Shown one piece after another: positions 4,216 through 63,016 of a stretch of DNA of 64,000 nucleotides. The DNA comes from Candidatus Nomurabacteria bacterium (GTDB lineage: Bacteria > Patescibacteriota > Minisyncoccia > Phycocordibacterales > SBAW01). The stretch is from NCBI GenBank assembly GCA_943356415.1, contig CALREW010000002.1, positions 128,325 to 192,324 on the forward strand, written 5' to 3'. Every line of letters starts with the position of its first letter. Position 1 is the first letter of the stretch. The notes below the pieces were generated by a model. That model was not told the DNA's origin. It saw nothing but the letters and a program-made list of their open reading frames with translations, and searched no databases. A program made the position numbers and the translations under genes.

Positions 4216-4722
4216 ATGAATAAAAATCTATTTCTTATCGGTCTTGGGGTCGTCATACTCGTTGCAGCTGGAATTCTGTTCTTTAAAGAAAAGCCGCAAC
4301 CGGTTACTACGACAGAAAATCCTGCAACACAGTCGCCTCAATCGGCAACTGAGGTAGCGTCTACGTCTACAAAGGATACGGGTGTGGGTGCAAGCGTTAA
4401 CGTACATGTCGGCACCTCCCCCGTTGTCATCTCCTTCACCGACAACGGATATTCACCAACAAGCGTCACGATTAAAAAAGGTCAGACGGTGCGCTTCGTA
4501 AATAACGCAACTGTGGAGACGTGGCCGGCATCTGCCAACCACCCATCACACACGGTCTATCCTGAGAAAACTGCCGGCGATTGTCTCGGCTCTGCCTTTG
4601 ATGCCTGCCGAGGACTGAAGTCGGGCGAGTCGTGGGACTTTACGTTCAACAGCATTGGTTCCTGGGGCTTCCATGACCACTTGCACGCAAACAAGCGCGG
4701 TACGGTTGTTGTGACTCAGTAA
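4216..4722 (+). CDS. membrane-anchored cupredoxin-like domain protein
   Basis: N-terminal TM, a Thr/Ser-rich linker, then a beta-rich domain with His/Cys candidates (NHPSH, GDCLG, FHDHLH) resembling the plastocyanin/cupredoxin fold. Confidence 0.45.
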   Translation: MNKNLFLIGLGVVILVAAGILFFKEKPQPVTTTENPATQSPQSATEVASTSTKDTGVGASVNVHVGTSPVVISFTDNGYSPTSVTIKKGQTVRFVNNATVETWPASANHPSHTVYPEKTAGDCLGSAFDACRGLKSGESWDFTFNSIGSWGFHDHLHANKRGTVVVTQ

Positions 4723-4727
4723 GAAAG

Positions 4728-5087
4728 ATGCCGAAAGCTGTAGAACACATTCTTCGAGCAGGGCTTGCGTTCGCCTTTATCTACCCAGCGGTAGCTGGGT
4801 ACTTAAATCCATTCTCGTGGATTGGTTACTTTCCTGAGTTTCTAAGAGACTCAGTGGGAAACGACACGCTGTTATTAAATGGATTTGGTTCTCTTGAGAT
4901 CGCAATTGCACTATGGACACTGTCCGGTTGGCGCATCTTTGTTCCTTCAATCCTTGCCGCAGTAATACTCGTTGGTATCATTCTCTTCAATGCAGCACAG
5001 ATGGATGTCATCTTCCGCGACGTATCCATTCTTGCTATAGCACTCGCTCTTGCACTTACCTCAAGAAAAGACCAGGCTCCTGCTTAG
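4728..5087 (+). CDS. small integral membrane protein (DoxX-like?)
   Basis: 119 aa with 3-4 hydrophobic helices. Translationally coupled 6 nt after the previous gene. Confidence 0.4.
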   Translation: MPKAVEHILRAGLAFAFIYPAVAGYLNPFSWIGYFPEFLRDSVGNDTLLLNGFGSLEIAIALWTLSGWRIFVPSILAAVILVGIILFNAAQMDVIFRDVSILAIALALALTSRKDQAPA

Positions 5088-6241
5088 CGAATTGCTTTAG
5101 CAACAGAAGGTACCACGCGCTTGTCGAATGTGCCTGGCACTATCATTGCGGCGGTTGGTTTCTTTACAAGTGCAGCAAGTGCTTTTGCTGCTTTGAGCTT
5201 CATGGCATCCGTAATTTTAGTTACCTTATTGTCGATAGCTCCACGAAACACGCCAGGGAACGCGAGCGAGTTGTTAATCTGGTTTGGGTAGTCGGAACGC
5301 CCTGTTGCAATAACCGCTGCACCACCGAGCACTGCTTCCTCAGGCAATATCTCAGGTACCGGATTTGCGAGGCCAAAGACAATCGGCTTCTTTGCCATGA
5401 GTTTGATATGCGAAGCGTTCATAAGACCCGGGCCCGATACACCGATAACCGCATCAGCTCCTTCGAGGGCCTCGGACAGACCCCCTGCAATCTGCCGCTT
5501 GTTTGTAAACGCCGCGAGCTCTTTCTTGTGTGGAGTGAGGTCTTTACGACCGCGGAGAATAATCCCCTTGCTATCAAGCATGACGATGTCTCCGACACCG
5601 AGAAGTTTTAAGAGATTCGCAACCGCCGTACCCGCAGCGCCAGCACCCGAGACCACCACTTTCATTTTCTTGAGATCTTTTTTCACGACTTTTGCTGCAT
5701 TGATAAGACCTGCAACCACCACAATAGCGGTGCCGTGCTGGTCATCATGCATTACCGGAATATCGAGTGCCGCTTTGACGCGCGCTTCAATATCAAAACA
5801 TTTCGGCGCCGCAATATCTTCAAGATTGATACCGCCGAACATTGGTGCAATACGAATGACGGTCTCAACTATTTCATCAGCGTCCTGCGTATCAAGCACA
5901 ATAGGAAATGCTTCAAGATCGGCAAGCGACTTAAAGAGCACCGCCTTCCCTTCCATGACTGGAATCGCGCCGTACGGCCCGATATTACCGAGCCCAAGAA
6001 CTGCCGAACCGTCAGAGACGATAGCGATGGTGCGTCCTTTCATCGTGTACTCACGCGCCTTTCCCGGATTCTTAGCGAGGTAGGAGGAGACCGCTCCGAC
6101 TCCCGGGGTGTAGACGGTGGAGAGATCTTCGCGGTTGTGAACGGGTTGAGCAGGAGTCGTGCGAATCTTACCGCCTAGTTTCTTGTGAAGTGCGAGCGCA
6201 AGCTTCGCATAGTCTTTTTTCTGTGTAGATTTCTTTTTCAT
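5084..6241 (-). CDS. NAD(P)-dependent malic enzyme (short type)
   Basis: 385 aa with YTPGV, two Rossmann dinucleotide-binding motifs GLGNIGP and VVSGAGAAG, and FPGVFRGA characteristic of malic enzymes. Confidence 0.85.
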   Translation of the reverse strand: MKKKSTQKKDYAKLALALHKKLGGKIRTTPAQPVHNREDLSTVYTPGVGAVSSYLAKNPGKAREYTMKGRTIAIVSDGSAVLGLGNIGPYGAIPVMEGKAVLFKSLADLEAFPIVLDTQDADEIVETVIRIAPMFGGINLEDIAAPKCFDIEARVKAALDIPVMHDDQHGTAIVVVAGLINAAKVVKKDLKKMKVVVSGAGAAGTAVANLLKLLGVGDIVMLDSKGIILRGRKDLTPHKKELAAFTNKRQIAGGLSEALEGADAVIGVSGPGLMNASHIKLMAKKPIVFGLANPVPEILPEEAVLGGAAVIATGRSDYPNQINNSLAFPGVFRGAIDNKVTKITDAMKLKAAKALAALVKKPTAAMIVPGTFDKRVVPSVAKAIR

Positions 6242-6264
6242 CCAGCAATACTAGCAGAAAGATA

Positions 6265-7356
6265 CTATTCCCCCATTTTAGGCAGATCAGGTGGCAAGTT
6301 GTCGTATATAAGTGACCCGCGCCAGTAGCACTCGATGCGCGTTCCTGAGCCAGGATTATTCGAATATTGAACAACTGCGATTCTTGAAGCAATGATCCCG
6401 AATGCCTGGGCTTGGCATGTTGTATTAGCTTCCGCCTGAGTAAGATTGGGCACCGTAATGTGGGGCGCTTTATTGAAATACAAGACATACGTGCCTAGAG
6501 GTTCTGTTGGAATAGGCACAACGGGGGTCGGAGGTGGTTGAGGAGATGGTATTGGGGTGGAAGGAGTGGGCGGCGGCGAATTGTAGGTTGGAGCTGGTGA
6601 AGATTGGCTCGGGTAAACGTACGTAGGTGAACAAAACGGATAGGTACCTGCAGTGCCAGCGGGACACTGCGTTGAAGCAGCGAACGTGGGGACCGCTTGC
6701 CAACATGTTGACCTGCCTCCCGGACCTTCTACTCCGAGTACGACGTACGGGTAACCTTCGATGTTTGCCGCGATTGTCGTGCTGCCTTGCAGTGCAATTT
6801 CTTCACCATTCATAACGAAATTATTTTTAGTGGGCGTCAGTTGCCACGCAGCGCGCGTCGCATACTTCGTGGTCCACGAAAGTGTCGCAGTATCCTTGAG
6901 AAGATAGCTCAGCTTGTCTGTCGAGATTATGCAAGAAGGCGCTTGAGCAGGAGTGCTCGTTGCAGACGTTTCACTCTTTACTGCAGTGTTTACTACAGAA
7001 TTAGTTGCGGAAACCGAGGCACAATACTCAACCATCTTTGCTCTCGTAAGCGGCCCAACCGTACCGACAACAGGGAGCCCTCTCTCTTGTTGAAAACGCG
7101 ACACGTACTGTTGCGTTAGCGGCCCAAAAAAACCAGTTACCAGTGTATCCATCTTTTGGGCGTATAGCGCTGCAAGGAATGTTTGCAATTCACGCACCTG
7201 TCCCTCGGAGGAAACGTCTTTCATACCTCGTGAAAGATTCTTACTAAACTTTGGACAGGCGGAGACAGCCTGCACATTCGTCAAAGGGAACAAAAAGCCA
7301 ACTGCTATTGCCACTACAATAAAATGTGTGGATGTGACTTTGATGGCCCGCACCAT
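6265..7356 (-). CDS. secreted peptidoglycan-binding (PG_binding_1) domain protein with Pro/Thr-rich linker
   Basis: PG_binding_1 signature QVRELQTFLAALY...GFFGPLTQQYVSRFQQERGLPVVGTVGPLT and a PTPSTPIPSPQPPPTP linker. Start set at the internal ATG at 7354-7356, because the longer ORF would overlap the divergent recG. Confidence 0.6.
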   Translation of the reverse strand: MVRAIKVTSTHFIVVAIAVGFLFPLTNVQAVSACPKFSKNLSRGMKDVSSEGQVRELQTFLAALYAQKMDTLVTGFFGPLTQQYVSRFQQERGLPVVGTVGPLTRAKMVEYCASVSATNSVVNTAVKSETSATSTPAQAPSCIISTDKLSYLLKDTATLSWTTKYATRAAWQLTPTKNNFVMNGEEIALQGSTTIAANIEGYPYVVLGVEGPGGRSTCWQAVPTFAASTQCPAGTAGTYPFCSPTYVYPSQSSPAPTYNSPPPTPSTPIPSPQPPPTPVVPIPTEPLGTYVLYFNKAPHITVPNLTQAEANTTCQAQAFGIIASRIAVVQYSNNPGSGTRIECYWRGSLIYDNLPPDLPKMGE

Positions 7357-11392: not shown

Positions 11393-12523
11393 ATGCCCCT
11401 TGTCACTACTGCGGACGATGGGTCCGTGAAAAGCGTCAAGCTGCCTCGTCCATCAAATCCACACGGACATGTCCGCGATGGAGCGCTGCGTGAAGCGGTC
11501 ACGCCCTGGGTGTTGGCGAACACCAAGCACCTGATCGTCATGCCGAATGTCGATCCGCCGCTGAAGACCGTGGAAGCCTCACTCACCTACCTCGGAGAGG
11601 TCGAGCGCATCCGGGACCGGCTCGGACTCGGAACCAATGTGCTCGGCACGCTCTACAATCACGACGGCATCACGCCGAAGATGATCGAGCAGATGGCTGC
11701 GACCAAGCGGATCGTCTCCGTCAAGTGCTACCCCGCCAAGGCGGGCATGACCACTGGCAGCGGTCAGGGCATCCCGCTCGAGCAGACGTCTGACGACGTG
11801 CTGCGGGCTGCCATCGACAACAACATCGTCTACCAGGTGCACGGCGAAGTGGACACCATGAAGGATGGCACACCGCTTGAACCCGCGATGCGGGAGCGGT
11901 ACTACATGACTGATGTGCTTCCGTATGTCCGCGATGCGCATCCCGATCTGCGTATCTCGGTCGAACACGGCACCACCGTCCAAGCGGTGCGTTTGGTCGA
12001 CGGAGATCCGAGCGGCAAGACCGTGATGACCATCACGCCGCAACATCTCCTGTTCGTCGACGACGACTTCATGCAGCCGTGGGGCAACGACCTCAAGTGC
12101 ATGCCCATCCTCAAGTGGCCGACCGACCGGGCTGCACTCATCAAGGCGGCGACGTCAGGCGACCGTCGTTTCTTCGCCGGGACGGACACCGCGCCGCACC
12201 CGTCGAGGAAGAAGCGGGGGGATTTCCAGCTCGCCGCCAACGGCTGCTGGCTTCCCCACTGGATCTCGCTCTACACCCAGGCGTTCCACGCCGCGGGCAA
12301 GCTCGACTCCGTGTTCGACGACTTCATGTCCTACAGCTTCGCCGACTGGATGGGTCTGCCCAGGCCAGAGCCCGATGACACGGTTCTCGTCACGTGCGAC
12401 ACCGCACATGACATACCGGCACCGATCAACATCGAGGGGGAGGACGACGTCGTCATTCCCCTCGGTTGGACCGAGACCGGCAATCGCCTGCGCGTCGGCT
12501 TCTCGGTTCGTGCCGACTTCTGA
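11393..12523 (+). CDS. pyrC: dihydroorotase, class II (E. coli PyrC type)
   Basis: N-terminal PSNPHGHVRDG...VMPNVDPP aligns with E. coli PyrC PDDWHLHLRDG...VMPNLAPP. Also has the KCYPA lysine region, VHGEV, and FFAGTDTAPH. Confidence 0.85.
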   Translation: MPLVTTADDGSVKSVKLPRPSNPHGHVRDGALREAVTPWVLANTKHLIVMPNVDPPLKTVEASLTYLGEVERIRDRLGLGTNVLGTLYNHDGITPKMIEQMAATKRIVSVKCYPAKAGMTTGSGQGIPLEQTSDDVLRAAIDNNIVYQVHGEVDTMKDGTPLEPAMRERYYMTDVLPYVRDAHPDLRISVEHGTTVQAVRLVDGDPSGKTVMTITPQHLLFVDDDFMQPWGNDLKCMPILKWPTDRAALIKAATSGDRRFFAGTDTAPHPSRKKRGDFQLAANGCWLPHWISLYTQAFHAAGKLDSVFDDFMSYSFADWMGLPRPEPDDTVLVTCDTAHDIPAPINIEGEDDVVIPLGWTETGNRLRVGFSVRADF

Positions 12524-18237: not shown

Positions 18238-19140
18238 ATGAGCACTCATAGACATCGAACCGGCGGCACGAGCGTGCCTCCTACCAAACCGCGCGGCCAA
18301 CAGATGGGCCCCGGAGGCCGCTACTGGCAGTGGAGCGAGAAGCAGCGCGACAGCGAACTCGACCAACTCCCCGTTGCGCTGAGGAAGCGTCTCGAGGAAA
18401 TCATCGGGCACATCGCGGACGCGCTCGCCCAACCGAAGGCCATCTACCCACAGATGGACAGCTACCGCGCCAAGAGCCAGCACCAGGCCGGCATCTTCGT
18501 CACCGCGGGTGAGAATCATCGCAGGGCGGCACAGCACAAGGTTGAGATCGCATTCGGGACCAAAGGCCAATACGGCTTGGGGCCTCGCGTGATGCTCACC
18601 ATCTGGGGGCTGAACGCGAGTGCGCTCAATAGCCTCTTCGCTAAGACCGGCGGCGACCTCAACAAGCTCGCGAAGCAGGTCGTCGAAAAGTGCAACCTGT
18701 CAGTGCCGATCGAATCGGTGTCTGCCCCCGCGGCCGCACCCATTCACCTCAACGGCCACAGCGCCGAGCGTCGGGACGAAGGCGTCTCACTTGCCGCTGC
18801 GGGTCCGTCGGTCGTACTCGAAACTTCCACGTCGAGTCCGCCCACCTGCCACAACGGCCAGGCGGCGATTGAGCTGCGACCTGACGGGCAATCGTCAGCG
18901 AAGCAAGAAGCGGTCATCCGCATCATCGCCACCGGTCACGGCATTTTCAATGGCCGGGACTTCGGGCGCGACGAGTTGGCGTTCGAGCTCGAAGACGCCT
19001 GCCCGCCAATCAATAACGCTAAGGCGCTCATCGACCAGATGATCGCGTGGGGCCACCTCGCTTCGGACGGCGCTCGACTCCACATCACACCTCAGGGCTA
19101 CGATTTCTGCTTCGGCGGACCATCGATCGCCTCCAATTAA
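18238..19140 (+). CDS. hypothetical protein, high-GC cassette
   Basis: RBS aaagggga before the ATG at 18238. About 300 aa with no recognisable motif. GC-rich codon usage distinct from the flanking genes. Confidence 0.4.
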   Translation: MSTHRHRTGGTSVPPTKPRGQQMGPGGRYWQWSEKQRDSELDQLPVALRKRLEEIIGHIADALAQPKAIYPQMDSYRAKSQHQAGIFVTAGENHRRAAQHKVEIAFGTKGQYGLGPRVMLTIWGLNASALNSLFAKTGGDLNKLAKQVVEKCNLSVPIESVSAPAAAPIHLNGHSAERRDEGVSLAAAGPSVVLETSTSSPPTCHNGQAAIELRPDGQSSAKQEAVIRIIATGHGIFNGRDFGRDELAFELEDACPPINNAKALIDQMIAWGHLASDGARLHITPQGYDFCFGGPSIASN

Positions 19141-29489: not shown

Positions 29490-30041
29490 ATGAATCGGAT
29501 TATCACTATTGCCGGCGCTCCAGGCTCGGGCAAATCGTCAACGGCAAAGCGCGTAGCAGAGGCACTTGGCTTTAAACATTTTTCCTCTGGCGATCTCTTC
29601 AGACAAATAGCAGCTGAACGAGGTGTATCTATAGAAGAGATAAATAAAACTGCTGAGCTTGAGCAAGAAATAGACCATGCCGTTGATCAAAAGCTTCGTG
29701 ACTGCGCGACAGAAGATGGGCTGGTTATAGACTCACGCCTCGCATACCACTGGTTGCCTAATTCATTCAAAGTCTATCTTGCACTCCCGCTAGAGAAAGC
29801 AGCGGAGCGTATTTTTGCGCACGTGAAGGATGTTGGTCGTGAAAGTGAAAATGCAAAGACGCTCGAAGAGACACTGCAGAATGTGCGCATGCGCGCAGAG
29901 AGTGAAAAGAAGCGCTATATGAATCTCTACGGCATCGACCCTTCTGACCTCTCCCCTTTTGATCTTGTGGTTGATACCGAAAAAAACAATCTCGACGAGG
30001 TAGTCGAGCTGGTGCTGAGCGAGTACAAAAAACGTTCGTAG
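29490..30041 (+). CDS. cmk: cytidylate kinase
   Basis: IITIAGAPGSGKSSTAKRVAEALGFKHFSSGDLFR and LVIDSRLA motifs. Start set at MNRIITIAG. Confidence 0.8.
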   Translation: MNRIITIAGAPGSGKSSTAKRVAEALGFKHFSSGDLFRQIAAERGVSIEEINKTAELEQEIDHAVDQKLRDCATEDGLVIDSRLAYHWLPNSFKVYLALPLEKAAERIFAHVKDVGRESENAKTLEETLQNVRMRAESEKKRYMNLYGIDPSDLSPFDLVVDTEKNNLDEVVELVLSEYKKRS

Positions 30042-30106
30042 GTCTCCCCTAAAAATGCAAAGGGCCGGCAATCGCTCGCCGGCCCCGCACTACGCACGCA
30101 TTTGGA

Positions 30107-31201
30107 TTACTTGATGGACGCCTGCGCGTCCTGGAGAAGGCTGACCCACATCGCGACCAGCTCCTTGCCACCTTCCTTGTGGCGACGGCCGGCCATCAAC
30201 GTGGAGTGGAAGTCAGGCGTGCGCTCGTAGAGCGCCTCCTGCTTCTCCTTCATGACGCGGTAGAGCCTGGACCGCTCCTGGTCCTCGGGGGAGTTGTAGG
30301 CAGCATGTCCTTGCTGCACCCGGCTCCACCAAGCATCATGGGCTTGGGTGTAGTCGGCGTACCGTTCCTGCACGTCAGGATCGTAGAAGCGCTCGAAAGC
30401 GCGCTTGACCCCATCGAGCCGTTCGGCACGGTAGCCTTGCTCCTCCTTGGGAAGTTCGCGGAACGCTGCGAGTGCAGCAGCCTTTCGCTTGTTGTAGAAG
30501 GCTTCGAGCCGCTGCGGATCGCGCAGATGCTTGCGGGCCTTCTCCATCATCGCCTTGCGGATGCTGTCGATCAGCGCCCCCGACGTATCGGGGATGCCGC
30601 GCTCGGCGTATGCCGTGTTCGGGGCGCCATCGCTTTCATGGCTATAGTAGAGCGCCCACCAGCAGCGGTTGCCGGTGTAGGGCTCCCCGAAGACGGGTCG
30701 GCAGAAGTTACGCTCCAGCAGGACCGCCTTGGCGCCGTAGACGCCGGCGTGCTGGTGCTTGACCGTCTTGGCAACGGTCTCGTCCGTCACCATGATCTCG
30801 AAACCCATGGCTTCGACGCGTTCGAGCGCCGTTTCCATGGCATTCCAGATCCTCCAATCGGCGATAGCCTTGCCGATAGGGCCTTGAAAGATCACCGCTC
30901 CGAGAGCGATGACGATCGCGCACAGGGCCGCGATCACACCCATCCACAACTTCCTCATTTTCCGTTTTCCTTGCTCCTTGATGCCGCGAGGAGCGGCATC
31001 GACAGCTACGGGAGAGCCGTTGCGGTCTCCGATGATGAAATCCACGCTGAGGCCACCCGCAAGGGTGACCCCATCCACAACAGAAGCCACGAGGAGCTTC
31101 TTGTTGAAGTGAGGATTCTTCTCTTCGGTTACCTTAACGACCCAGGTCATGACACCGCGGAAGGGATCCTTCCCGACCACGTGTCCCTTAGTGCGCTCCA
31201 T
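30107..31201 (-). CDS. hypothetical membrane protein, high-GC cassette (364 aa)
   Basis: GC-rich coding with an internal TM helix WMGVIAALCAIVIALGAVIF. Own promoter and structured leader upstream. No recognisable catalytic motif. Confidence 0.45.
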   Translation of the reverse strand: MERTKGHVVGKDPFRGVMTWVVKVTEEKNPHFNKKLLVASVVDGVTLAGGLSVDFIIGDRNGSPVAVDAAPRGIKEQGKRKMRKLWMGVIAALCAIVIALGAVIFQGPIGKAIADWRIWNAMETALERVEAMGFEIMVTDETVAKTVKHQHAGVYGAKAVLLERNFCRPVFGEPYTGNRCWWALYYSHESDGAPNTAYAERGIPDTSGALIDSIRKAMMEKARKHLRDPQRLEAFYNKRKAAALAAFRELPKEEQGYRAERLDGVKRAFERFYDPDVQERYADYTQAHDAWWSRVQQGHAAYNSPEDQERSRLYRVMKEKQEALYERTPDFHSTLMAGRRHKEGGKELVAMWVSLLQDAQASIK

Positions 31202-31204
31202 CCT

Positions 31205-31300
31205 ACCGTTCCTTTCAGATAAGCGGGTGGTCCGGGTATCGGACCACCGAGCAAGCGGCGAATATGCCCCGCCTATTCGGTGGTCCGATATATAAGTAAT
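31205..31300 (-). promoter_or_regulatory. structured 5' leader with mutually exclusive hairpins (candidate riboregulator)
   Basis: On the minus strand the elements cggaccaccg / cggtggtccg / ccggaccacc can form two alternative 9-10 bp stems just upstream of the RBS aaagga. Confidence 0.4.
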
Positions 31301-31329
31301 CCAAATGTCAAAGTACCTAACTTGAACTA

Positions 31330-31357
31330 ATTATACCATATATAGAAATATAGTCAA
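31330..31357 (-). promoter_or_regulatory. near-consensus sigma70 promoter TTGACT-N16-TATAAT
   Basis: The minus-strand sequence reads ttgactatatttctatatatggtataatt within an AT-rich block. It drives the high-GC gene at 30107..31201. Confidence 0.6.
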
Positions 31358-31446
31358 GTACTTTTAGAGGAGTCGCAAATAGGGTGCGCATATGAAAAAA
31401 GCCCGCGGTTAGGGGCTAAAATAGGGTTTCTGAGTCAGAGGACTCG

Positions 31447-31557
31447 AAAAATTGCTTCAGATGCAAGACGTGGGGCTAAGGTCCCCGCGAGGCGTATCTG
31501 GCATACGACGAGCGGGGCCGAGGGGCCCCGCAACGCAGCAGATGGAGCAATTTTGCG
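31447..31557. ncRNA. candidate structured RNA element (three-way junction) immediately 3' of secY
   Basis: A 16-nt long-range helix ggactcgaaaaattgc / gcaattttgcgagtcc (1 mismatch) encloses two GC hairpins gtggggctaaggtccccgc and gcggggccgaggggccccgc. Confidence 0.3.
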
Positions 31558-31561
31558 AGTC

Positions 31562-32833
31562 CTAGTACTCGCGAATGGCGAGTTGGGCATCTATACGGCG
31601 TACGAGATCAAGCACTACGGAGACCACGATGAGGAGAGCGGTACCACCAATCGCCAGGGTATTTATGCCCGTGAGTCCTTGCATAACGATAGGCAGCACT
31701 GCAATAACGCCGAGGAAGAGTGCTCCTGGGAGCGTAATGCGGGTCACCACCTTTGCGAGGTAATCAGCGGTCGAAGCACCTGGGCGCACGCCCGGGATAA
31801 ACGCGCCGTCACGCTGGAGGTTCTGCGCAACTTGGTTTGGATCGAAGGTTACTGCGGTATAGAAGTACGTGAAGATAAAGACAAGTACGAAGTAGGACGT
31901 ACCGTATACCCAATGATTATTGAGAAGCGCGACGGCGTCGCTTGCGAACTTCACCAAGCGTGCACTATCAGAACCCGCGAGGAGCCCGAATGCCATCTGC
32001 GGAAGCAGCAAGATAGAAAGTGCGAAGATGATCGGGATTACGCCTGCTTGGTTGAGACGGAATGGGAGATATGTCGTTCCCCCACCCATCACACGCATAC
32101 CGCGAACACGCTTTGCGTAGGTCACCGGTATCGGACGCTCTGCTTCTGATACAACAACAACGCCCGCAATCGTCACAACTGCGACCGCAACGAAAGCGAT
32201 GTAGACAGGGAGCTGTGACGCATCGAACGTAAAGATAAGCTGACTTACCGTTGAAGGGAGGCGCGAAACAATACCTGCAAAGATAAGCATCGATACACCC
32301 TGGCCGATACCGAACTCAGAGATAAGTTCGCCGAGCCACATAAGGAGCATTGAACCTGCCGTCACGATGCCGACGTTCACCGCAAACTCAAACGGAGGAA
32401 GCGACGGAACGATACCCTGTCGCGTGAGGATAACGAGAAATGCGATGCCTTGAAGAACCGCGAGCGGCAAGGTGAGGAGGCGCGAGTACTGCGCAAAGCG
32501 GATGCGACCTGCTTCCCCTTCCTCTTGATACATGGCCTTCAGCTTCGGGAAGATGATGGTCATGAGCTGCATGATGATGGACGCCGTGATATACGGGCCC
32601 ACACCAAGGAGCACGATAGAAAGGTTAGAAAGACCGCCACCAGCAAAAATGTTGAGGATGCCGAAGAATTGATTTTGTGAAAACAGCTGTGCGAGCGCGT
32701 CGAGGTTAACGCCAGGAATCGGGATAGACGCAAGCGCGCGGAAAATAAATATCGCGGCAAGCACAAAAACCACACGACGCACCAGCGTCCAGTCCGAGAA
32801 GAACAGTGACGCTTTCTCGCGGAGTGTTTGCAT
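31562..32833 (-). CDS. secY: preprotein translocase subunit SecY
   Basis: 423 aa with 10 TM helices. Conserved GIMPYIxASI-like region (GVGPYITASIIMQL). Position after rplO. Confidence 0.95.
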   Translation of the reverse strand: MQTLREKASLFFSDWTLVRRVVFVLAAIFIFRALASIPIPGVNLDALAQLFSQNQFFGILNIFAGGGLSNLSIVLLGVGPYITASIIMQLMTIIFPKLKAMYQEEGEAGRIRFAQYSRLLTLPLAVLQGIAFLVILTRQGIVPSLPPFEFAVNVGIVTAGSMLLMWLGELISEFGIGQGVSMLIFAGIVSRLPSTVSQLIFTFDASQLPVYIAFVAVAVVTIAGVVVVSEAERPIPVTYAKRVRGMRVMGGGTTYLPFRLNQAGVIPIIFALSILLLPQMAFGLLAGSDSARLVKFASDAVALLNNHWVYGTSYFVLVFIFTYFYTAVTFDPNQVAQNLQRDGAFIPGVRPGASTADYLAKVVTRITLPGALFLGVIAVLPIVMQGLTGINTLAIGGTALLIVVSVVLDLVRRIDAQLAIREY

Positions 32834-34268: not shown

Positions 34269-34802
34269 TTATGCAGTCTTTTTACCTTGCTTGCGGCGGA
34301 CGACTTCACCTTCGTAGCGAATACCTTTGCCTTTGTATGGTTCAGGCTTCTTCAGAGCGCGTATTTCAGCTGCAAACTGTCCGACCGCCTCTTTGTCAAA
34401 ACCACTGAGTGTGAGGCCAGTCTTATCGATCGATGCCTTAATACCATCAGGGATTTTCATTTTGACCGGGTGAGAGAAACCGAGGTTGAGATTGATGCTG
34501 TCCCCCGCCACTTCCCATTTGAAACCGACGCCTTCAATGGCGAGCTTCTTGGTGAAGCCTACAGTCACACCCGCCATCATATTGCGAACATGCGATGCAT
34601 ACGTGCCAACCAATGCGCGGGCGGTGAGCGACGTGCTCTTCTGTTCAACCTGCACGCCTTCTGCCGAAATAGAGATGCCTATCTCGCGCGGAATATCCTT
34701 CGAGAGTGTCCCGAGTGGTCCTTTGACCACGACAGAAACCGCAGAAGCATTTACTTCAGCTCCCTTAGGAATAGCGATGGGTCGTTTAGCAAGTCGAGAC
34801 AT
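34269..34802 (-). CDS. rplF: 50S ribosomal protein L6
   Basis: MSRLAKRPIAIPKGAEV...KGKGIRYEGE. Confidence 0.9.
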   Translation of the reverse strand: MSRLAKRPIAIPKGAEVNASAVSVVVKGPLGTLSKDIPREIGISISAEGVQVEQKSTSLTARALVGTYASHVRNMMAGVTVGFTKKLAIEGVGFKWEVAGDSINLNLGFSHPVKMKIPDGIKASIDKTGLTLSGFDKEAVGQFAAEIRALKKPEPYKGKGIRYEGEVVRRKQGKKTA

Positions 34803-34808
34803 ATAGAT

Positions 34809-35201
34809 TTACCAGATTTCAAACAAAGCCTCACCGCCAACACGCTCTTTGCGAGCAGCTGCGTCAGTGAGCACTCCTTTGGGAGTTGAAAGTACGAGAA
34901 GACCTTTCCCGCGTTTTACCGGGAATACTTCGCGAACACCTTTGTAGATGCGGCGCGAAGGCTTGGAGATGCGCTTAGTGCCGACAATCGCCGGCTTGCC
35001 GTCCTTGTAGGTGAGCTCGACAACCATGTGCTTGAGTGCAGTCTTTCCGCGGCGGCTTATTTCGCCAACATAGCCTTCCTTTGCAAGAAGATTGGCAAGC
35101 TCATTCTTCATTTTAGAGAACGGCATGATGACCTCAGTCTTTCCAACACGGTTGGCGTTTTTGAGGCGTATGAGGAAATCAGCAATAGGGTCGGTAGTCA
35201 T
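34809..35201 (-). CDS. rpsH: 30S ribosomal protein S8
   Basis: MTTDPIADFLIRLKNANRVGK. Confidence 0.9.
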   Translation of the reverse strand: MTTDPIADFLIRLKNANRVGKTEVIMPFSKMKNELANLLAKEGYVGEISRRGKTALKHMVVELTYKDGKPAIVGTKRISKPSRRIYKGVREVFPVKRGKGLLVLSTPKGVLTDAAARKERVGGEALFEIW

Positions 35202-35207
35202 GTTGGG

Positions 35208-35393
35208 TTACCAGGAAGACTTCTTAACGCCCGGGATCATGCCTTCACTTGCAAGTTCGCGGAAGCAGAGGCGGCAGAGATCGAAGTCGCGCATGTAGGC
35301 ACGCTTGCGGCCGCACTTGAAGCAACGGCGAACGACCCGAGACTTAAACTTCGGGACGCGCGACGAACGTACTTTGGTCGATGTTTTCGCCAT
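35208..35393 (-). CDS. rpsZ: 30S ribosomal protein S14, zinc-binding short type Z
   Basis: 61 aa MAKTSTKV...[25 protein letters not shown] with a C-x2-C...C-x2-C pattern. Start set at the internal ATG. Confidence 0.85.
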
Positions 35394-35590
35394 GTGTTTT
35401 TGTGCCCTTTTGTGCCTTGGTCTCCTAAGTATTGGGGACCGAAGCGCTGTTCCATCCGTATCCGCCGCTATAAAAGTGAGCCCGGGCGGACGAGAAGGAA
35501 ACAAAAATGCCTGCAAACAGGCACCGAGGCATCGTATCAGCGCTACGGGGCAGTGTCAAACCAGACGGAGGCGGCGCAGGGAGGAGTCGG

Positions 35591-35618
35591 TTGACAGTCC
35601 CGCTCCTTCACGTATGAC
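35591..35618 (+). promoter_or_regulatory. sigma70-like promoter TTGACA-N16-TATGAC
   Basis: The sequence ttgacagtcccgctccttcacgtatgac lies 30 nt upstream of the plus-strand high-GC ORF. It points opposite to the ribosomal operon. Confidence 0.55.
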
Positions 35619-35649
35619 AGTAGATGGAGTCCACCTGGGAGAGATCCAT

Positions 35650-36051
35650 ATGAGCCACCGCCTCGCAATCTTTCTGTCCGCGCTCCTGTTTGGGGCGCTC
35701 GCGCTTATGGCGCCTGCAGCCGCTCAAATGGTGCCTGCGCCGACCGATATATCGGGAAAGCTGGACCGCCTTGAGCTCAACCCGGGAGAGGTGTCCCCAT
35801 GCGGTCCCTACTTCCTACCAACCGACCCGGGCTACGTCACCTTCAAGCTGGAGAACCGGCCGAACGGGGACCGCATGCTGGCGCTCGTCTTCATCATGCA
35901 GGTCCGGAATGTCCGTCTCGTGATCGATAACACGAAGGACGTGCCCTTCTTCTCAGCTCGGATGAACGCAGCTCGGCTCGAGTTGGTCCAGATCCGGCTC
36001 TCACAAGCAGCGCACGATCGGGCGCTATCATGCTTCTCTGAGAAAAGTTGA
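35650..36051 (+). CDS. hypothetical secreted protein (signal peptide), high-GC cassette inside the spc operon
   Basis: RBS ggagag 7 nt before the ATG. Signal peptide MSHRLAIFLSALLFGALALMAPAAAQ. GC-rich codons. On the opposite strand to rpsZ and rplE. Confidence 0.45.
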   Translation: MSHRLAIFLSALLFGALALMAPAAAQMVPAPTDISGKLDRLELNPGEVSPCGPYFLPTDPGYVTFKLENRPNGDRMLALVFIMQVRNVRLVIDNTKDVPFFSARMNAARLELVQIRLSQAAHDRALSCFSEKS

Positions 36052-36069
36052 TGGCATAGGGCCGTCAAC

Positions 36070-36105
36070 GAAACCGGCGCCACTCGGCGCCGGTTTTCGT
36101 TTTCG
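36070..36105. terminator. bidirectional GC-rich terminator
   Basis: Hairpin aaaccggcgcc-actc-ggcgccggttt followed by tcgttttcg. Lies right at the rplE stop. Confidence 0.65.
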
Positions 36106-36639
36106 CTACTTTTTGAACGGAAAACCGAGATGGGTCAGGTACGCAATTGCTTCTTTTGAGCTCTTGGCTGTAGTAACTACCGTTATTGCGAGACCGAATA
36201 CATCTTTGATGTCCTCATCTGCAGTTTCAGGGAATACGGTGTGCTCCTTGATGCCGAGCGTGTAGTTACCTACTTCGTCAGCGGCAGTCAAAGAAATACC
36301 TTTGAAGTCTTTGGTGCGTGGAAGTGCGATGTGGATGAGACGATTTACAAAATCCTGCATGCGCTTTCCGCGAAGCGTGATCTGATACCCGACTGGGTCA
36401 CCTGCGCGAACCTTAAACGTCGCAATGGACTTCTTGGCTGCACGCACGGCTGGCTTCTGACCAGTGATTTTGCCGAGGCGGTCTGCAACAAGCGCAATCT
36501 TGTTTTTGTCCTTCATCGAACCAGTACCAACAGAAATAACAACCTTAACGAGCTTCGGCGTCTCCATGATATTGCGGTAACCGAAATCTCCCTTGAGGGA
36601 CTCGAGCGCTTTCTTCTGTTTGTCTTGAATGAGTTCCAT
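36106..36639 (-). CDS. rplE: 50S ribosomal protein L5
   Basis: IMETPKLVKVVISVGTG...ITLRGKRMQDFVNRLI. Confidence 0.9.
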   Translation of the reverse strand: MELIQDKQKKALESLKGDFGYRNIMETPKLVKVVISVGTGSMKDKNKIALVADRLGKITGQKPAVRAAKKSIATFKVRAGDPVGYQITLRGKRMQDFVNRLIHIALPRTKDFKGISLTAADEVGNYTLGIKEHTVFPETADEDIKDVFGLAITVVTTAKSSKEAIAYLTHLGFPFKK

Positions 36640-36648
36640 GGAAGTGGT

Positions 36649-36903
36649 TTAGGCCTTTGCCTTCTTAGCCTTCGTCTCGCCCTTGATCATCACTTTGCTT
36701 ACGCGAATCGGGAGTGTCTTCTCGATTATCTGTCCCTTGGAACCAGATTTGCGCGCCTTCTCATGGCGTTTTACCTGGTTTACGCCCTCGATAAGCACGA
36801 GGCCAGCCTTCGGAAAGGCGCGGAGCACCTTGCCGGTTTTTCCCTTGTACTCGCCGGAGAGTACGGTGACGGTATCGCCTTTCTTTACGTGAAGCGTATT
36901 CAT
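36649..36903 (-). CDS. rplX: 50S ribosomal protein L24
   Basis: MNTLHVKKGDTVTVLSGEYKGKTGKVL is the KOW motif. Start set at the internal ATG at 36901-36903. Confidence 0.85.
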   Translation of the reverse strand: MNTLHVKKGDTVTVLSGEYKGKTGKVLRAFPKAGLVLIEGVNQVKRHEKARKSGSKGQIIEKTLPIRVSKVMIKGETKAKKAKA

Positions 36904-39256: not shown

Positions 39257-39604
39257 TTATTTCTTCGGTGCAGCAGCAGCTTCAGGTTTTGCAGCCTTGG
39301 CAGCAGCAATCTCAGACTCCTTCTTTTTGATCTCGAGCTCTTTCTGCATCTTTCCTCCGTGACGAACGAACTTCTTTGTAGGAGAGAATTCACCGAGGCG
39401 ATGACCCACCATATCTTCGGTAACCAACACTTCGATATGAGTCTTGCCGTTGTGTACGCCAAACTTGAAACCAACCATCTCAGGAGAAATCTGACTGCGG
39501 CGGTACCACGTGTTTATAACCCCAGTGGTCTGAGGCTTTTTACCCTCAATTTTCTTGAGGAGTTTTGGTTCAACGAAGGGTCCTTTAGTGAGTGAGCGTG
39601 CCAT
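39257..39604 (-). CDS. rpsS: 30S ribosomal protein S19 (C-terminal Ala/Lys-rich extension)
   Basis: [18 protein letters not shown]...[18 protein letters not shown]. Confidence 0.9.
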
Positions 39605-39806: not shown

Positions 39807-40490
39807 TCATAGTTCAACTGAACTGGTTGGAATCTTGTCCTCAAGTGTCTTGGCTGTACTACTGTTCACAAAATCCAAGTAATTACTCTGCTTAGTGCCA
39901 TCGAACTGACTAATGAGGATATCGCTAGAAAGGAGACTCCCCCACCGATTTTCTTCCACCATGTCTTGGAAAGAAGAATACGGATACGCAAGCTCGTAAC
40001 CTTTCCACTTTGCGAGCTCTCTCGGGTTGCGATGAATATAAGCCGAAAGATATAAGAGCTGGTCATTGTCCTGCACGTGCACATTCTTGTATCTGCTTTC
40101 AAAAAGGTGCCCCGCGGCTTTGTACTTTGTATTGAAATACATGGCATATCCCGTTGAAAGTCGTTGCATATAGGCGCTGATACCTCCTTCGGTAGTCTCT
40201 TTAAGCAAAAGGTGGAAATGATTGGGCATGATGCAAAATGCTACAAGCTCAATCAATTTATTTTTTTCGATGCTCTCCAATTGGCTCTTCGGTATCCGAA
40301 AACCCTCTTCGAGAGCTGCCGATTTCAAGTACCGACGGATATTCGGCAAAGCAACATCCGATTGGCAGTGGAGGATCAAAAAAAGGAAACGGAGCCAATC
40401 GTGCTCATCCTTAAAGAGATTCGCTTTATGCGCCCCGCGATTGAACACATGGTAATACTCTCCAAAAGAAATTTCTCGAGCTACCGTCAT
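39807..40490 (-). CDS. tnpA: IS200/IS605-like Y1 (HuH) transposase TnpA / REP-associated tyrosine transposase
   Basis: HuH motif MPNHFHLLL, catalytic Tyr region GHLFESRYKNVHV, and N-terminal YHVFNRGAHKANLF. Confidence 0.75.
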   Translation of the reverse strand: MTVAREISFGEYYHVFNRGAHKANLFKDEHDWLRFLFLILHCQSDVALPNIRRYLKSAALEEGFRIPKSQLESIEKNKLIELVAFCIMPNHFHLLLKETTEGGISAYMQRLSTGYAMYFNTKYKAAGHLFESRYKNVHVQDNDQLLYLSAYIHRNPRELAKWKGYELAYPYSSFQDMVEENRWGSLLSSDILISQFDGTKQSNYLDFVNSSTAKTLEDKIPTSSVEL

Positions 40491-40508
40491 TCAACCGAGT
40501 TTAACATG

Positions 40509-40536
40509 TTTGTTCGAGGCCCGGGCCTCGAACAAA
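40509..40536. repeat. 28-nt perfect palindrome (right end hairpin)
   Basis: The sequence tttgttcgaggccc|gggcctcgaacaaa has the same core as the left-end palindrome. Confidence 0.9.
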
Positions 40537-40583
40537 AACTTCTTTGGCAAATGCTTATGAATATTTAAGAGCAAAAAGCCGAA

Positions 40584-40612
40584 CGGGGCGCCAGATGGCG
40601 CCCCGTGGGGGT
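40584..40612 (-). terminator. GC-rich terminator after purE
   Basis: The minus strand reads ggggcgcc-atct-ggcgcccc followed by gttcggctttttgctc. Confidence 0.65.
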
Positions 40613-40661
40613 GGAGGATGGTTGGAGTTTCGTGAAGTCGAACGTCGCTTGTCGGGCGAGG

Positions 40662-41273
40662 TTACTTCTTCTTGCCGGCGGCCTTCTTGGCCTTCGGCAT
40701 GACGAACTTCGGCGGCGCGACCGGCACATTGTCGCTCTGGTGGGTGACGTAGCGATGCAGCGCATCGCGGACGTTCGGCCTGTAGAGACCGACCATCGAG
40801 GCAGCCAGCAGTGCCGCGTTAGCGGCGGCACCCATGCCAACCGTTGCGACGGGCACGCCGGGCGGCATCTGGACGATGGAGAGCAATGCATCCATCCCAT
40901 CGAGACCCGTCTTCGGCGGATTGCCGATGATGGGAACCCCGATGACCGGGATGCTCGGCGCGTGGGCCTTCATCATGCCGGGCAGATGTGCGGCACCGCC
41001 GGCACCAGCGATGATGATGCGGTTGCTGATGTTGGCCCGGTGTGCGAGGAACTCCACGCGGCGTGGGGTCCGATGCGCCGACGTGATGAACGTCTGATAG
41101 GTGACGCTGAGTTCGACGAGGACGCGGACGCAGTCCCACATGCCACCTGCGATGCCCTCACGCCAGTCGCTGATGGAGCCCATCGCGACGAGGACGTCGA
41201 CCTTCTTCAGTTCCTTCGCCCGCTTGACGAAGTCCGTCCACGTTTTCGGCTCATCTGGCATAAAGTCAGCCAT
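40662..41273 (-). CDS. purE: N5-carboxyaminoimidazole ribonucleotide mutase (PurE), high-GC cassette inside the S10 operon
   Basis: VLVAMGSISDW, SAHRTP and IAGAGGAAHLPGMMKAHAPSIPVIGVPI are PurE signatures. Strong G/C-ending codon bias. Lies between rplB and rpsS, which are normally adjacent. Confidence 0.85.
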   Translation of the reverse strand: MADFMPDEPKTWTDFVKRAKELKKVDVLVAMGSISDWREGIAGGMWDCVRVLVELSVTYQTFITSAHRTPRRVEFLAHRANISNRIIIAGAGGAAHLPGMMKAHAPSIPVIGVPIIGNPPKTGLDGMDALLSIVQMPPGVPVATVGMGAAANAALLAASMVGLYRPNVRDALHRYVTHQSDNVPVAPPKFVMPKAKKAAGKKK

Positions 41274-41419: not shown

Positions 41420-42271
41420 TTAGTCTGCTTTGCGCTTCTTGCCGACGCGACGGCGAGAAACGATGAGGCGATTGGAGTATTTCTTCGGCGTGCGAGTCTT
41501 TTGACCCTTACCTGCAGGGCGTCCCCACATGGTGACAAGGCGGCGACGTCCGCGACCTTGGCGTCCTTCACCACCGCCGTATGGGTGGTCAACTGGGTTC
41601 ATGGCAGTACCTCGAACGGTCGGACGGATACCTTTCCAGCGACTGCGTCCTGCTTTACCGAAGTTAACAAGGTGATGTTCAGGATTTGAAACTTCGCCGA
41701 TAGTGGCAAAGCACGTCTCGAGAACTTTGCGCACTTCAGTCGACGGCATCTTGAGGTCAACATAGCCTCCGTCGCGAGCGATAACTTCGATGTGGGTACC
41801 TGCGGAGCGACCAAGTTTGCCACCGTTGCCTGGCTTTATCTCGACGTTGTATACGAAAGTACCAACGGGAACATTCTTGAGCGGCATTGCATTGCCTGGT
41901 ACTGGCTTTGCGTCAGGACCACAAACAATCTCTGCGCCGGCCTTTACTGACTGAGGAAGAAGGCGGTAGCGACGAGAACCATCCTTGTAGACAACGACAC
42001 CAACGAAACCTGAGCGGTTTGGATCGTATTCAATAGTCTCAACACGACCAGGGACACCCACTTTATCGTAATGAGAAGTAACCTCACGGAAGAGACGCTT
42101 GGCACCGCCTCCTTTGTGACGCACGGTTATGCGGCCGACATTGTTACGACCAACACCACGCTTAAACCCAGAGGTGAGTGGCTTGTACGGATCGGTCGTG
42201 GTCAACTCCTTGCGGAAGTTGATGCCAGTCATGCCGCGGCGTGATTTTGTGTATGGCTTATACGTTTTCAT
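41420..42271 (-). CDS. rplB: 50S ribosomal protein L2
   Basis: GRNNVGRITVRHKGGG...HPYGGGEGR. Confidence 0.95.
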   Translation of the reverse strand: MKTYKPYTKSRRGMTGINFRKELTTTDPYKPLTSGFKRGVGRNNVGRITVRHKGGGAKRLFREVTSHYDKVGVPGRVETIEYDPNRSGFVGVVVYKDGSRRYRLLPQSVKAGAEIVCGPDAKPVPGNAMPLKNVPVGTFVYNVEIKPGNGGKLGRSAGTHIEVIARDGGYVDLKMPSTEVRKVLETCFATIGEVSNPEHHLVNFGKAGRSRWKGIRPTVRGTAMNPVDHPYGGGEGRQGRGRRRLVTMWGRPAGKGQKTRTPKKYSNRLIVSRRRVGKKRKAD

Positions 42272-61888: not shown

Positions 61889-63016
61889 CTATTCGCCGTC
61901 GCCACCACCGCCACCACCGCCGTCGCCACCACCGCCACCACCGCCGTCGCCACCACCGCCGCCGCCAGCATCGGTATCGACGGTGTCGACTTCCACTGCA
62001 ACGGGGTTAACGCGGTTGTTGCCCACGTCGCCGTCGTTGAGACCGTTGCCCACCTGGGCTTCGGTTTCCTGCTGGCTTTCGGCGAACTGCGTTGCCGGCA
62101 CGTCGTCGGCGCTCGTCACCTCGCCATCGTGGGCGAAGCCTCCGAGCTGATTGCCGTCTTCGCCCATCGAGCCGAGGCTCGGGTCGAAATCGGCCGGCAG
62201 ATCGGCGTCGGCCTGCTGGAGCTCTTCCGGCAAGTCGAGGAGCGACTTGAACGGCTCGTCGAACAGGTTGACGTCGGTATCGACGGCATCCTGCAGCGAC
62301 TGCGTCGTGCCGTCGATACCCATCGCCGCGAAGCGGTCCGCCTCCGAGAAGGCGGGCGCAGCGGCGTTGGCATCGCTGGGACGCAGCAGCATGTAGGCGA
62401 GGCCGAGGCCAGCCGCCGCGGTGAGGCCGGCGACGACCGGATTCACGCGCCCTCCGAGACCGAGGCGACCGAGAAGACCTTGCCGCGGACCGTTGTTGTT
62501 CCGGCCGGCGACATGGACGTTCATGGTCGTTTCCTTCGGGATGCCCATCGTCTGGGCAACCTTCCAGGCATCGATGTTGGCGCCCAGGAAGATGATCACC
62601 CAACCCTGAGCACGGCGTTCGGCGATCTTCTGCTTCACGTCGTCGAGGGTGTACTTCTTGGATGCGTTTTCCAACCCATCGGTGAAGATGACGAGCGTGT
62701 ACTTGACGCCGGCCTCCTCCACACCGTCCGTGAGCGCCGACATGATGGCGTCCAGGAGCGGCGTGAGCGCGCGGGGCTCGTACTCGTCTTCCTTGAGCAG
62801 CTCGATCTCGGAGACCTTGCCGTTACGGAGAACGTCGAAACCCTGGCTGTCCCACTGGACCAGCTTGAAGGCGGCGTCGCGGGCGACCGGGTCGGCCTTG
62901 AGCTTGCCGAGGTAGGCATTGATGCCTTCCACGACGGGGTCCTTCCACTGCGCCATCGAACCGCTGCGATCGACAGTCTTACGGACTTCGTACCTCTGAC
63001 TCGTTTGATCGGCCAT
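61889..63016 (-). CDS. VWA-domain protein with C-terminal Gly/Asp tandem repeat, very high-GC cassette
   Basis: MIDAS-like DRSGSM and FTDGLEN. The C-terminus is DAGGGGGGDGGGGGGGDGGGGGGGDGE, encoded by three tandem 24-nt units. GC looks above 60% with extreme G/C third positions. Confidence 0.55.
   Translation of the reverse strand: MADQTSQRYEVRKTVDRSGSMAQWKDPVVEGINAYLGKLKADPVARDAAFKLVQWDSQGFDVLRNGKVSEIELLKEDEYEPRALTPLLDAIMSALTDGVEEAGVKYTLVIFTDGLENASKKYTLDDVKQKIAERRAQGWVIIFLGANIDAWKVAQTMGIPKETTMNVHVAGRNNNGPRQGLLGRLGLGGRVNPVVAGLTAAAGLGLAYMLLRPSDANAAAPAFSEADRFAAMGIDGTTQSLQDAVDTDVNLFDEPFKSLLDLPEELQQADADLPADFDPSLGSMGEDGNQLGGFAHDGEVTSADDVPATQFAESQQETEAQVGNGLNDGDVGNNRVNPVAVEVDTVDTDAGGGGGGDGGGGGGGDGGGGGGGDGE
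61895..61968. repeat. tandem 24-nt repeat x3 encoding (G7D)n
   Basis: Plus-strand unit gtcgccaccaccgccaccaccgcc, iterated. Confidence 0.8.

Follow-up and report, generated by a model that had tools for sequence, protein, structure and literature searches.

The S10-spc-alpha cluster of ribosomal protein genes is a textbook example of conserved gene order, and in many pipelines for phylogenomics and binning it counts as a single syntenic block. Chromosomal hot spots, in which accessory genes are flanked by conserved core genes, have also been recognized, and convergent gene pairs may share one intrinsic terminator hairpin. In Gammaproteobacteria and Bacilli, small numbers of genes have been inserted into the ribosomal cluster in a clade-specific manner, mostly between the classical operons, an exception being nrdHEF, which lies between rplL and rsmC within the rpoBC operon (Brandis, 2021, PMC8046335). 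Most of the regulatory RNAs of E. coli ribosomal protein genes are reported to be narrowly distributed to Gammaproteobacteria (Fu et al., 2013, PMC3616713). Here we describe a locus in a 64,000-nucleotide stretch of DNA from Candidatus Nomurabacteria bacterium (assembly GCA_943356415.1, contig CALREW010000002.1, positions 128,325 to 192,324; this whole stretch is the window, and positions below are its own) in which the ribosomal cluster is open between the genes for L5 (rplE) and S14 (rpsZ), and in which an open reading frame (ORF) for a small, predicted exported protein occupies the gap on the opposite strand. The source organism is a patescibacterium; the rplE product is at best 72-74% identical to L5 of metagenome-assembled genomes labelled Adlerbacteria, Nomurabacteria and similar.

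Read from right to left on the minus strand, the cluster runs S3, L16, L29, S17, L14, L24, L5, then a 712-bp gap, then S14, S8, L6, L18, S5, L15 and SecY. As the initial annotation had stated, there is an opposite-strand gene between S14 and L5: the plus strand of the gap carries the ORF, which opens with ATG 35650, closes with TGA 36049-36051 and overlaps no ribosomal gene, although it encodes 133 amino acids and not the 134 originally given. The anatomy of the locus is as follows.

35208-35393, minus strand: rpsZ, encoding zinc-type S14 (Cys4, 61 aa), first gene of the S14-S8-L6-L18-S5-L15-SecY unit (Pfam Ribosomal_S14, 1.7e-21)
35394-35530, minus strand: rpsZ 5' leader (folding, likeness to relatives)
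35531-35559, minus strand: rpsZ promoter-like site, TTGACA-17-TACGAT with TG extension (consensus scan)
35591-35618, plus strand: ORF promoter-like site, TTGACA-N16-TATGAC (exact motif match)
35637-35643, plus strand: Shine-Dalgarno-like GGGAGAG, 6 nt 5' of ATG 35650 (sequence reading)
35650-36051, plus strand: orphan gene for the 133-aa precursor of a predicted small exported protein (ORF, conservation, distant homologue)
35650-35724, plus strand: predicted signal-peptide coding part, MSHRLAIFLSALLFGALALMAPAAA, with Q as the first residue after the cut (rule-based)
36070-36097, both strands: GC-rich hairpin that separates the ORF stop codon from the convergent one of rplE (terminator scan, folding)
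36106-36639, minus strand: rplE, encoding ribosomal protein L5, with which the upstream ribosomal unit ends (Pfam Ribosomal_L5, 1.3e-16; Ribosomal_L5_C, 4.7e-30)

The explanation that we favor, with a probability of roughly 70%, is that the ORF is a species-restricted accessory gene in a spacer between two ribosomal transcription units, not inside one. The classical spc operon would have been broken between L5 and S14 in this sub-lineage of Patescibacteria, with the upstream ribosomal unit stopping at the hairpin after rplE and the S14-to-SecY unit restarting from its own promoter and structured leader. The L5-S14 spacer would tolerate insertions and carry a different cargo in each species, here an ORF that is rich in GC at third codon positions (GC3) and was probably acquired horizontally. 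Transcription of the ORF would start from the modest TTGACA-N16-TATGAC site, back to back with the rpsZ promoter, and end at the hairpin shared with rplE; we infer this promoter and terminator activity from motifs and folding. Translation would proceed from the GGGAGAG ribosome-binding site at ATG 35650, and the product would be exported via SecYEG and cut by signal peptidase I (SPase I) after Ala25 to leave a basic protein of ~108 aa and 12 kDa. The ORF is, in the end, an ordinary orphan accessory gene, and the break between L5 and S14 and the unannotated S14 leaders are of greater interest.

Part of the evidence for this reading comes from the same junction in other genomes. Comparative genomics of the rpsZ-rplE junction had been proposed as a check by the initial annotation, and in 80 loci from species-representative genomes, retrieved with the L5 of the window, the spacing of adjacent genes was measured.

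L5-S14 gap, 54 Patescibacteria relatives with both genes found: median 460 bp, interquartile range 190-1130, maximum 2856; >100 bp in 91% and >400 bp in 54%
Eight other junctions, S17 to L15, same 54-species set: medians 4-64 bp, none >400 bp
L5-S14 gap, 13 other bacteria: median 29 bp
L5-S14 gap, 2 more distant Patescibacteria (L071, L073): 8-9 bp

In the distant Patescibacteria and the other bacteria together the gap is 8-44 bp. As the other junctions are tight, and as the L5-S14 junction is tight in other bacteria and in L071 and L073, the break is specific to this junction and to one sub-lineage of Patescibacteria, where it is established lineage-wide; the loci concerned are L005-L070 and L074 (for example, L020 4514-7372, L008 4529-6744 and L012 4532-5686). 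A hairpin followed by a T run occurs within 100 nt of the L5 stop codon in 39 of 66 loci, many of them textbook-like, and the hairpin after rplE in the window is placed where relatives have their L5 terminator. At the other side of the gap, the 200 nt that precede S14 contain a strict sigma-70 match in 16 of 47 loci, compared to 1.1% of 270 control coding segments.

What lies between differs from species to species. The Pfam-recognizable cargo comprises HicA with a UPF0150/HicB-like partner, PemK/MazF, a reverse transcriptase, DUF559, DUF2203, and TruB with cytidylate kinase, accompanied by many orphans, and clustering of the 70 gap ORFs that reach 70 aa, which come from 26 loci, gives 67 clusters. 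Opposite-strand cargo recurs (L011, L013/L014, L024 and L053). The picture of an anomalous insert within a single, highly expressed operon therefore does not hold: no ribosomal gene is overlapped, the junction exceeds 100 bp in nine-tenths of the relatives, and many of them carry cargo there. The initial annotation had also reasoned that its view would fall if homologous inserts were universal in the lineage and host-like in composition, and inserts are indeed near-universal but are not homologous to the ORF. We found no description of an L5-S14 break in the Candidate Phyla Radiation/Patescibacteria in the searchable literature, the coverage of which is incomplete. That a whole sub-lineage breaks the S10-spc-alpha cluster at a fixed point, with fast-turnover cargo, is the broader significance of the locus, and the gap offers a defined place in which to seek accessory, possibly host-interaction, genes in reduced genomes.

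Two of these cargoes deserve mention in their own right. In L006, a 55-aa opposite-strand ORF (~3315-3513, minus strand) has, by inspection, its own hairpin and T run facing the L5 stop codon, a convergent layout as in the window with unrelated sequence. In L020, positions 4756-7230 hold a 213-aa orphan and, after it, a reverse transcriptase of 333 aa (Pfam RVT_1, 4e-26; a generic reverse transcriptase in PADLOC), which may belong to a diversity-generating retroelement or be a defense reverse transcriptase.

The search for a promoter serving the genes from rpsZ onwards that the initial annotation had called for turned up a candidate. On the minus strand at 35559-35531 there is a TTGACA hexamer, a 17-nt spacer and TGATACGAT (TACGAT), including a TG extension. 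It is the only consensus-scan match in 34800-36800 and one of three TTGACA-N16-18-TANNNT sites in the 64 kb, and the relative L052 has the same -10 upstream of its S14. By these features, including its recurrence in relatives, the site qualifies as a predicted sigma-70-type promoter. The promoter-like site of the ORF is arranged back to back with it, the two -35 hexamers being 31 bp apart and pointing in opposite directions. Here the motif that had been read in the initial annotation is present exactly, with TTGACA at 35591-35596, a 16-nt spacer and TATGAC at 35613-35618, a pattern expected 0.02 times per window, and it is unchanged in strain L003. Its -35 is perfect and its -10 matches TATAAT at 4/6 positions; the consensus scan did not list it because the -10 is without a final T and there is no TG extension.

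The predicted rpsZ leader is ~135 nt long and begins with a hairpin and U tract (35525-35495; -10.5 kcal/mol), continues with a long helix that carries GATAC in its 3' arm, and has CCAAGGCACAAAAGGG just before the start codon; as a whole it folds at -49.3 kcal/mol (z = -2.9). The S14 leaders of the closest clade follow this order of elements and have motifs in common with it: a hairpin with a U tract comes immediately after the promoter, and a long helix with the conserved GATAC comes next. They lie at the following positions.

L005, 4565-4680: S14 leader
L006, 3607-3721: S14 leader
L008, 6648-6747: S14 leader
L009, 5672-5786: S14 leader

Because these four leaders share its layout and motifs, 35394-35560 looks native and not inserted, and the foreign segment would be roughly 35560-36067, which holds just the ORF and the promoter-like site in front of it. 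The terminator-like hairpin with U tract directly after the predicted rpsZ promoter, in the window and in its nearest relatives, could serve as an attenuator or as a stop for read-through from L5. A search of Rfam returned nothing in 35150-36200 better than E = 4.5, and the scan of the whole window found a transfer-messenger RNA (tmRNA) and two tRNAs, all elsewhere.

A second class of S14 leader, a conserved structured RNA, was seen in other relatives in the ~110 nt directly before S14 (L022, L028, L035, L036, L037, L041, L045, L047, L050, L051 and L063), with variants in L025, L029, L056 and L066 (alignment A3). The outer helix pairs GATCTGTG with CACAAGATC, the internal loop reads UUUCUCC / AGAAAA, and a variable hairpin caps the inner helix. 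Compensatory changes are found in 12 of its 18 predicted pairs, and the 9 of the 15 loci that were scanned gave no Rfam match. This class is a candidate new ribosomal-protein leader, and S14 leaders thus point to a candidate new ribosomal-protein regulatory RNA in these organisms.

At the other end of the gap, 54 nt separate the ORF stop codon from that of rplE, and a single palindromic GC-rich stem lies in this interval. The hairpin (36070-36097), of whose 12 base pairs 8 are G-C, has a folding energy of -29.8 kcal/mol on the plus strand and -29.4 kcal/mol on the minus strand (z = -4.9 and -4.0, respectively), no shuffled sequence being as stable. The bidirectional terminator of the initial annotation is borne out in part: the plus strand has the tail TTTTCGTTTTCG with a canonical U tract (UUUUCGUUUUCG), and the hairpin there has the make-up of an intrinsic terminator, whereas the tail on the minus strand, UUUCGUUGA, falls short of the 5 T in 8 required by the scan, which listed the plus-strand terminator only. 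Use of the hairpin on the rplE side is a weaker terminator candidate.

It is this tail that gives some room to the strongest of the rival explanations, although we regard it as unlikely. In that explanation the gene is real, but the cluster is still one unit: RNA polymerase that leaves rplE reads through the hairpin, crosses the ORF in the antisense direction and heads for rpsZ. Collision and antisense RNA would then keep the ORF silent while the ribosomal genes are highly expressed, and its product would be made only when ribosome synthesis is shut down. The imperfect -10 of the ORF would fit such an arrangement, as would the second hairpin at 35525-35495, with its good U tract, which could stop read-through before rpsZ. 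However, the stem after rplE is very stable (-29 kcal/mol), and rpsZ has both a near-consensus promoter-like site and a leader like that of its relatives. The hairpin at 35525-35495 cuts both ways, as it would also keep read-through from rpsZ, which would then need a promoter of its own. Furthermore, relatives with kilobases of cargo in the gap, including convergent genes, keep promoters before S14. Of the two possibilities originally offered, a split operon or a tightly repressed insert, it is thus the split that is favored, by the hairpin after rplE, the promoter-like site and leader of rpsZ, and the recurrent break in relatives. The transcriptional interference that the initial annotation expected may still occur.

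A different kind of objection is that the ORF might not be a gene but a frame left open by chance in a GC-rich non-coding spacer made up of spacer, promoter and leader. Long shadow ORFs are common in the window, and no family, structure or fold has been found for the product. We nevertheless consider this highly unlikely. The conservation of the gene within the species is established. Copies that are identical or 98% identical occur at the same place in L001-L004, L088 and L089, and the gene is intact at the same site on all six contigs that encode an identical S14 as well as on the contigs found via the ORF. These contigs come from several sequencing runs and represent two strain lineages that are 98.3% identical over 8.2 kb. 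Metagenome runs that contain the species are ERR5863123, ERR5863124, SRR24750903, SRR24750906 and SRR24750916. Between the strains the ORF has 4 synonymous and 3 non-synonymous changes (pS, the proportion of synonymous sites changed, 0.039; pN, that of non-synonymous sites, 0.010; ratio 0.26), compared with 115 synonymous and 8 non-synonymous changes in 14 flanking genes pooled (ratio 0.02, pS 0.070). As the pS of the ORF is near that of the flanking genes, the gene was present before the strains split; it has changed far more quickly than the ribosomal genes have, and any constraint on it is weak at most.

The frame itself has the marks of a coding sequence. Its GC content by codon position is 0.64/0.43/0.74, a pattern typical of coding sequence, the remaining five frames over it contain 3-6 stop codons each, the Shine-Dalgarno-like sequence is well spaced, and the sole indel between the strains falls just outside the frame. 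This indel, a 1-nt deletion at position 35649 in L003, moves the earlier ATG, at 35614, into another frame, and ATG 35650 is for this reason the conserved start. At 90% identity the ORF product clusters with four sequences in all, of 145, 133, 219 and 133 aa, which differ mostly in the called start; we set aside the 145-aa and 219-aa calls (P0001 and P0003) as start-site artefacts, ATG 35614 being unframed by the indel and lying inside the -10 hexamer.

What also argues against a chance frame is a homologue, established by an exhaustive phmmer search of a library of 1.84 billion cluster representatives standing for ~15 billion proteins. P0005, a hypothetical protein of 131 aa, aligns end to end with the ORF product at 29% identity (library E = 6e-4, pairwise E = 9e-14) and is the only genuine homologue found outside the species. 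The two share the layout of the predicted signal peptide (PAxA before the cut and Q after it, with PAWA in P0005), two cysteines at matching positions, and the 17-residue motif MQxRNVRxxIDNxKxVP, and their mature parts align on their own (E ~1e-7). The genomic context is unrelated: the gene for P0005 lies on a 1.8-kb metagenome contig (Logan SRR12113384), outside any ribosomal cluster and convergent with a gene for a VanY/PG_binding_1 peptidase, and its GC3 is 0.81 as opposed to 0.59 for that neighbor. The best named full-length relatives of the peptidase are from Parcubacteria-type organisms, and for that reason the ORF family seems to be confined to Patescibacteria. The homology with P0005 argues against a chance ORF and also against a de novo origin in the L5-S14 spacer, and we conclude that the ORF is very probably a real gene encoding a predicted exported protein.

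Other searches added little. A word-indexed search of 5.8 billion proteins, by sequence and by profile, returned only the product's own cluster and P0005, and a repetitive 1215-aa phmmer match was disregarded for want of an aligned stretch. There was no match to the ORF product in Pfam, NCBIfam, PHROGs or PDB sequences, even at relaxed E values of 1-10, and none in PADLOC at an E limit of 0.001, which leaves a defense-gene reading unsupported. Pattern scans of JGI metagenome contigs and IMG/VR found no relative, an exact look-up of P0003 returned no contig, no paralogue turned up when tblastn was run on the window and every fetched locus, and the neighborhoods of VanY homologues in L086 and L087 do not carry the family. 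The statement that the protein has no recognizable family holds for the named families of the databases searched, but one distant homologue exists. The ORF is notable for having a single homologue found among 1.84 billion representatives; by itself it would only add to the many hypothetical exported proteins of the phylum.

As to the product, its N-terminus reads MSHR / LAIFLSALLFGALALMA / PAAA, then Q, which is to say an n-region with R4, a 17-residue hydrophobic core, and alanine at -3 and -1. The signal peptide of the initial annotation is borne out by a rule-based check, in which the features of a type-I (SPase I) signal peptide are all present, and its layout is kept in P0005, which shows the same computed features, cysteines included. 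The maximum Kyte-Doolittle average over 11 residues is 2.52, and the mature part is without a second hydrophobic segment. There is no lipobox for signal peptidase II (SPase II) in the product, the first cysteine being residue 51, far beyond the signal peptide. The predicted mature protein, released by the putative cleavage after Ala25, has 108 aa, a mass of 12.1 kDa and a pI of 8.0, and Cys51 and Cys128 (precursor numbering) probably form one disulfide. The structure prediction of the mature protein that had been suggested was uninformative: AlphaFold2 models of the full length, with a 3-sequence alignment, and of the mature part had pLDDT values of 38.5 and 38.3, and neither is usable. The product is a single gene's, without a toxin or antitoxin domain, and so does not resemble the type II toxin-antitoxin cargo of the relatives L012 and L053. 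Our best guess, weakly based, is that it is an envelope or extracellular accessory factor.

The remaining rival, that the insert is a remnant or cargo of an insertion sequence, integron cassette, phage or plasmid fragment targeting the hairpin after rplE, might be encouraged by the raised composition of the ORF, by the IS200-like Y1 transposase gene and purE elsewhere in the window and by the toxin-antitoxin genes and reverse transcriptase among the cargo of relatives, but it is the least probable of all, with no flanking direct or inverted repeats, transposase or integrase at 35200-36300 (no dedicated attC model was applied) and no match in 72,556 plasmids and 50,697 phages by tblastn, in viral or JGI metagenome contigs, or in PHROGs.

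The composition of the ORF, which the initial annotation had described as high-GC codons, is indeed raised but is not extreme. Its GC content is 0.604 compared with 0.527 for the window, 8.4% of 400-nt windows being at least as GC-rich, and its GC3 of 0.74 lies above the average of 0.56 over 48 proxy genes (z = 1.8). A minority of ORFs in the window have GC3 values of 0.77-0.81, namely those at 61889-63016 (minus), 11393-12523 (plus), 18238-19140 (plus) and 30107-31201 (minus); two of these four are without a Pfam family, and the ORF in the gap is in the same compositional class. It is possible that the GC3-rich ORFs of the window represent a pool of horizontally acquired genes.

Several points weigh against the explanation that we favor. 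The -10 hexamer of the ORF is without the conserved final T, and its expression is predicted from sequence. The poor U tract on the minus strand after rplE makes some read-through antisense to the ORF likely. The signal of purifying selection comes from 7 substitutions, for which a hand-calculated binomial test against neutrality gives p ~0.08, and the family, with two members only, provides thin evidence of conservation. The two AlphaFold2 models are uninformative. The GC enrichment is moderate, and a handful of further genes in the window, purE and two unknown genes among them, share it. Finally, no relative with an empty site was found, and the boundaries and polarity of the insertion are putative.

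A bolder extension of the same explanation, about which we are doubtful, is that the L5-S14 break is a maintained docking slot, insulated by the terminator and by the promoter with its attenuator-like leader, that repeatedly captures accessory genes such as toxin-antitoxin systems, retroelements and exported orphans. With the ORF product a new family of small exported proteins, disulfide-bonded and used at the symbiont-host interface, would have its first member, and the convergent arrangement of the gene with the ribosomal unit would make its expression run inversely to ribosome synthesis.

Two further features of the window lie outside the gap. One is a second interruption of the cluster at 39807-41273 on the minus strand, between rplB (41420-42271) and rpsS (39257-39604), which consists of the IS200-like Y1 transposase gene (39807-40490) and a purE/AIR carboxylase gene (40662-41273; GC3 0.82). 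The other is a strain-variable slot at the secY end of the S14-to-SecY unit, the opposite end from the ORF gap, where the two strains have no detectable similarity directly downstream of secY (window ~30000-31562, L003 ~4317-5913): the window has one GC3-rich ORF of 364 aa (30107-31201), in L003 a 177-aa and a 232-aa gene, both unrelated, occupy the slot, and none of the three has a family.

How, then, does the locus compare with what has been described? With convergent gene pairs that share one terminator hairpin it has in common that the stop codons of the ORF and rplE lie close together on either side of a single stem; it differs in that a good U tract is present on one side only, and termination on the rplE side is an inference. 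The S8 site of the E. coli spc operon resembles the S14 leaders in that a structured 5' leader precedes a multi-gene unit that includes S8, and a covariation-supported leader class exists in relatives, but the leader here precedes S14, not the L5 start, and has no Rfam match. The junction also behaves like a chromosomal hot spot, with L5 and S14 fixed and the content between them varying among orphan, toxin-antitoxin and retroelement genes, although no integrase, tRNA or repeat marks the site, which is instead a terminator-promoter-leader junction amid the most conserved gene cluster of bacteria. Finally, as in the insertions described by Brandis (2021, PMC8046335), a few unrelated genes between transcription units break the ribosomal cluster and leave the neighboring ribosomal genes intact. 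However, the break here is inside the classical spc operon, between rplE and rpsN/Z, at a fixed point throughout a whole sub-lineage, and with a cargo that differs in almost every species.

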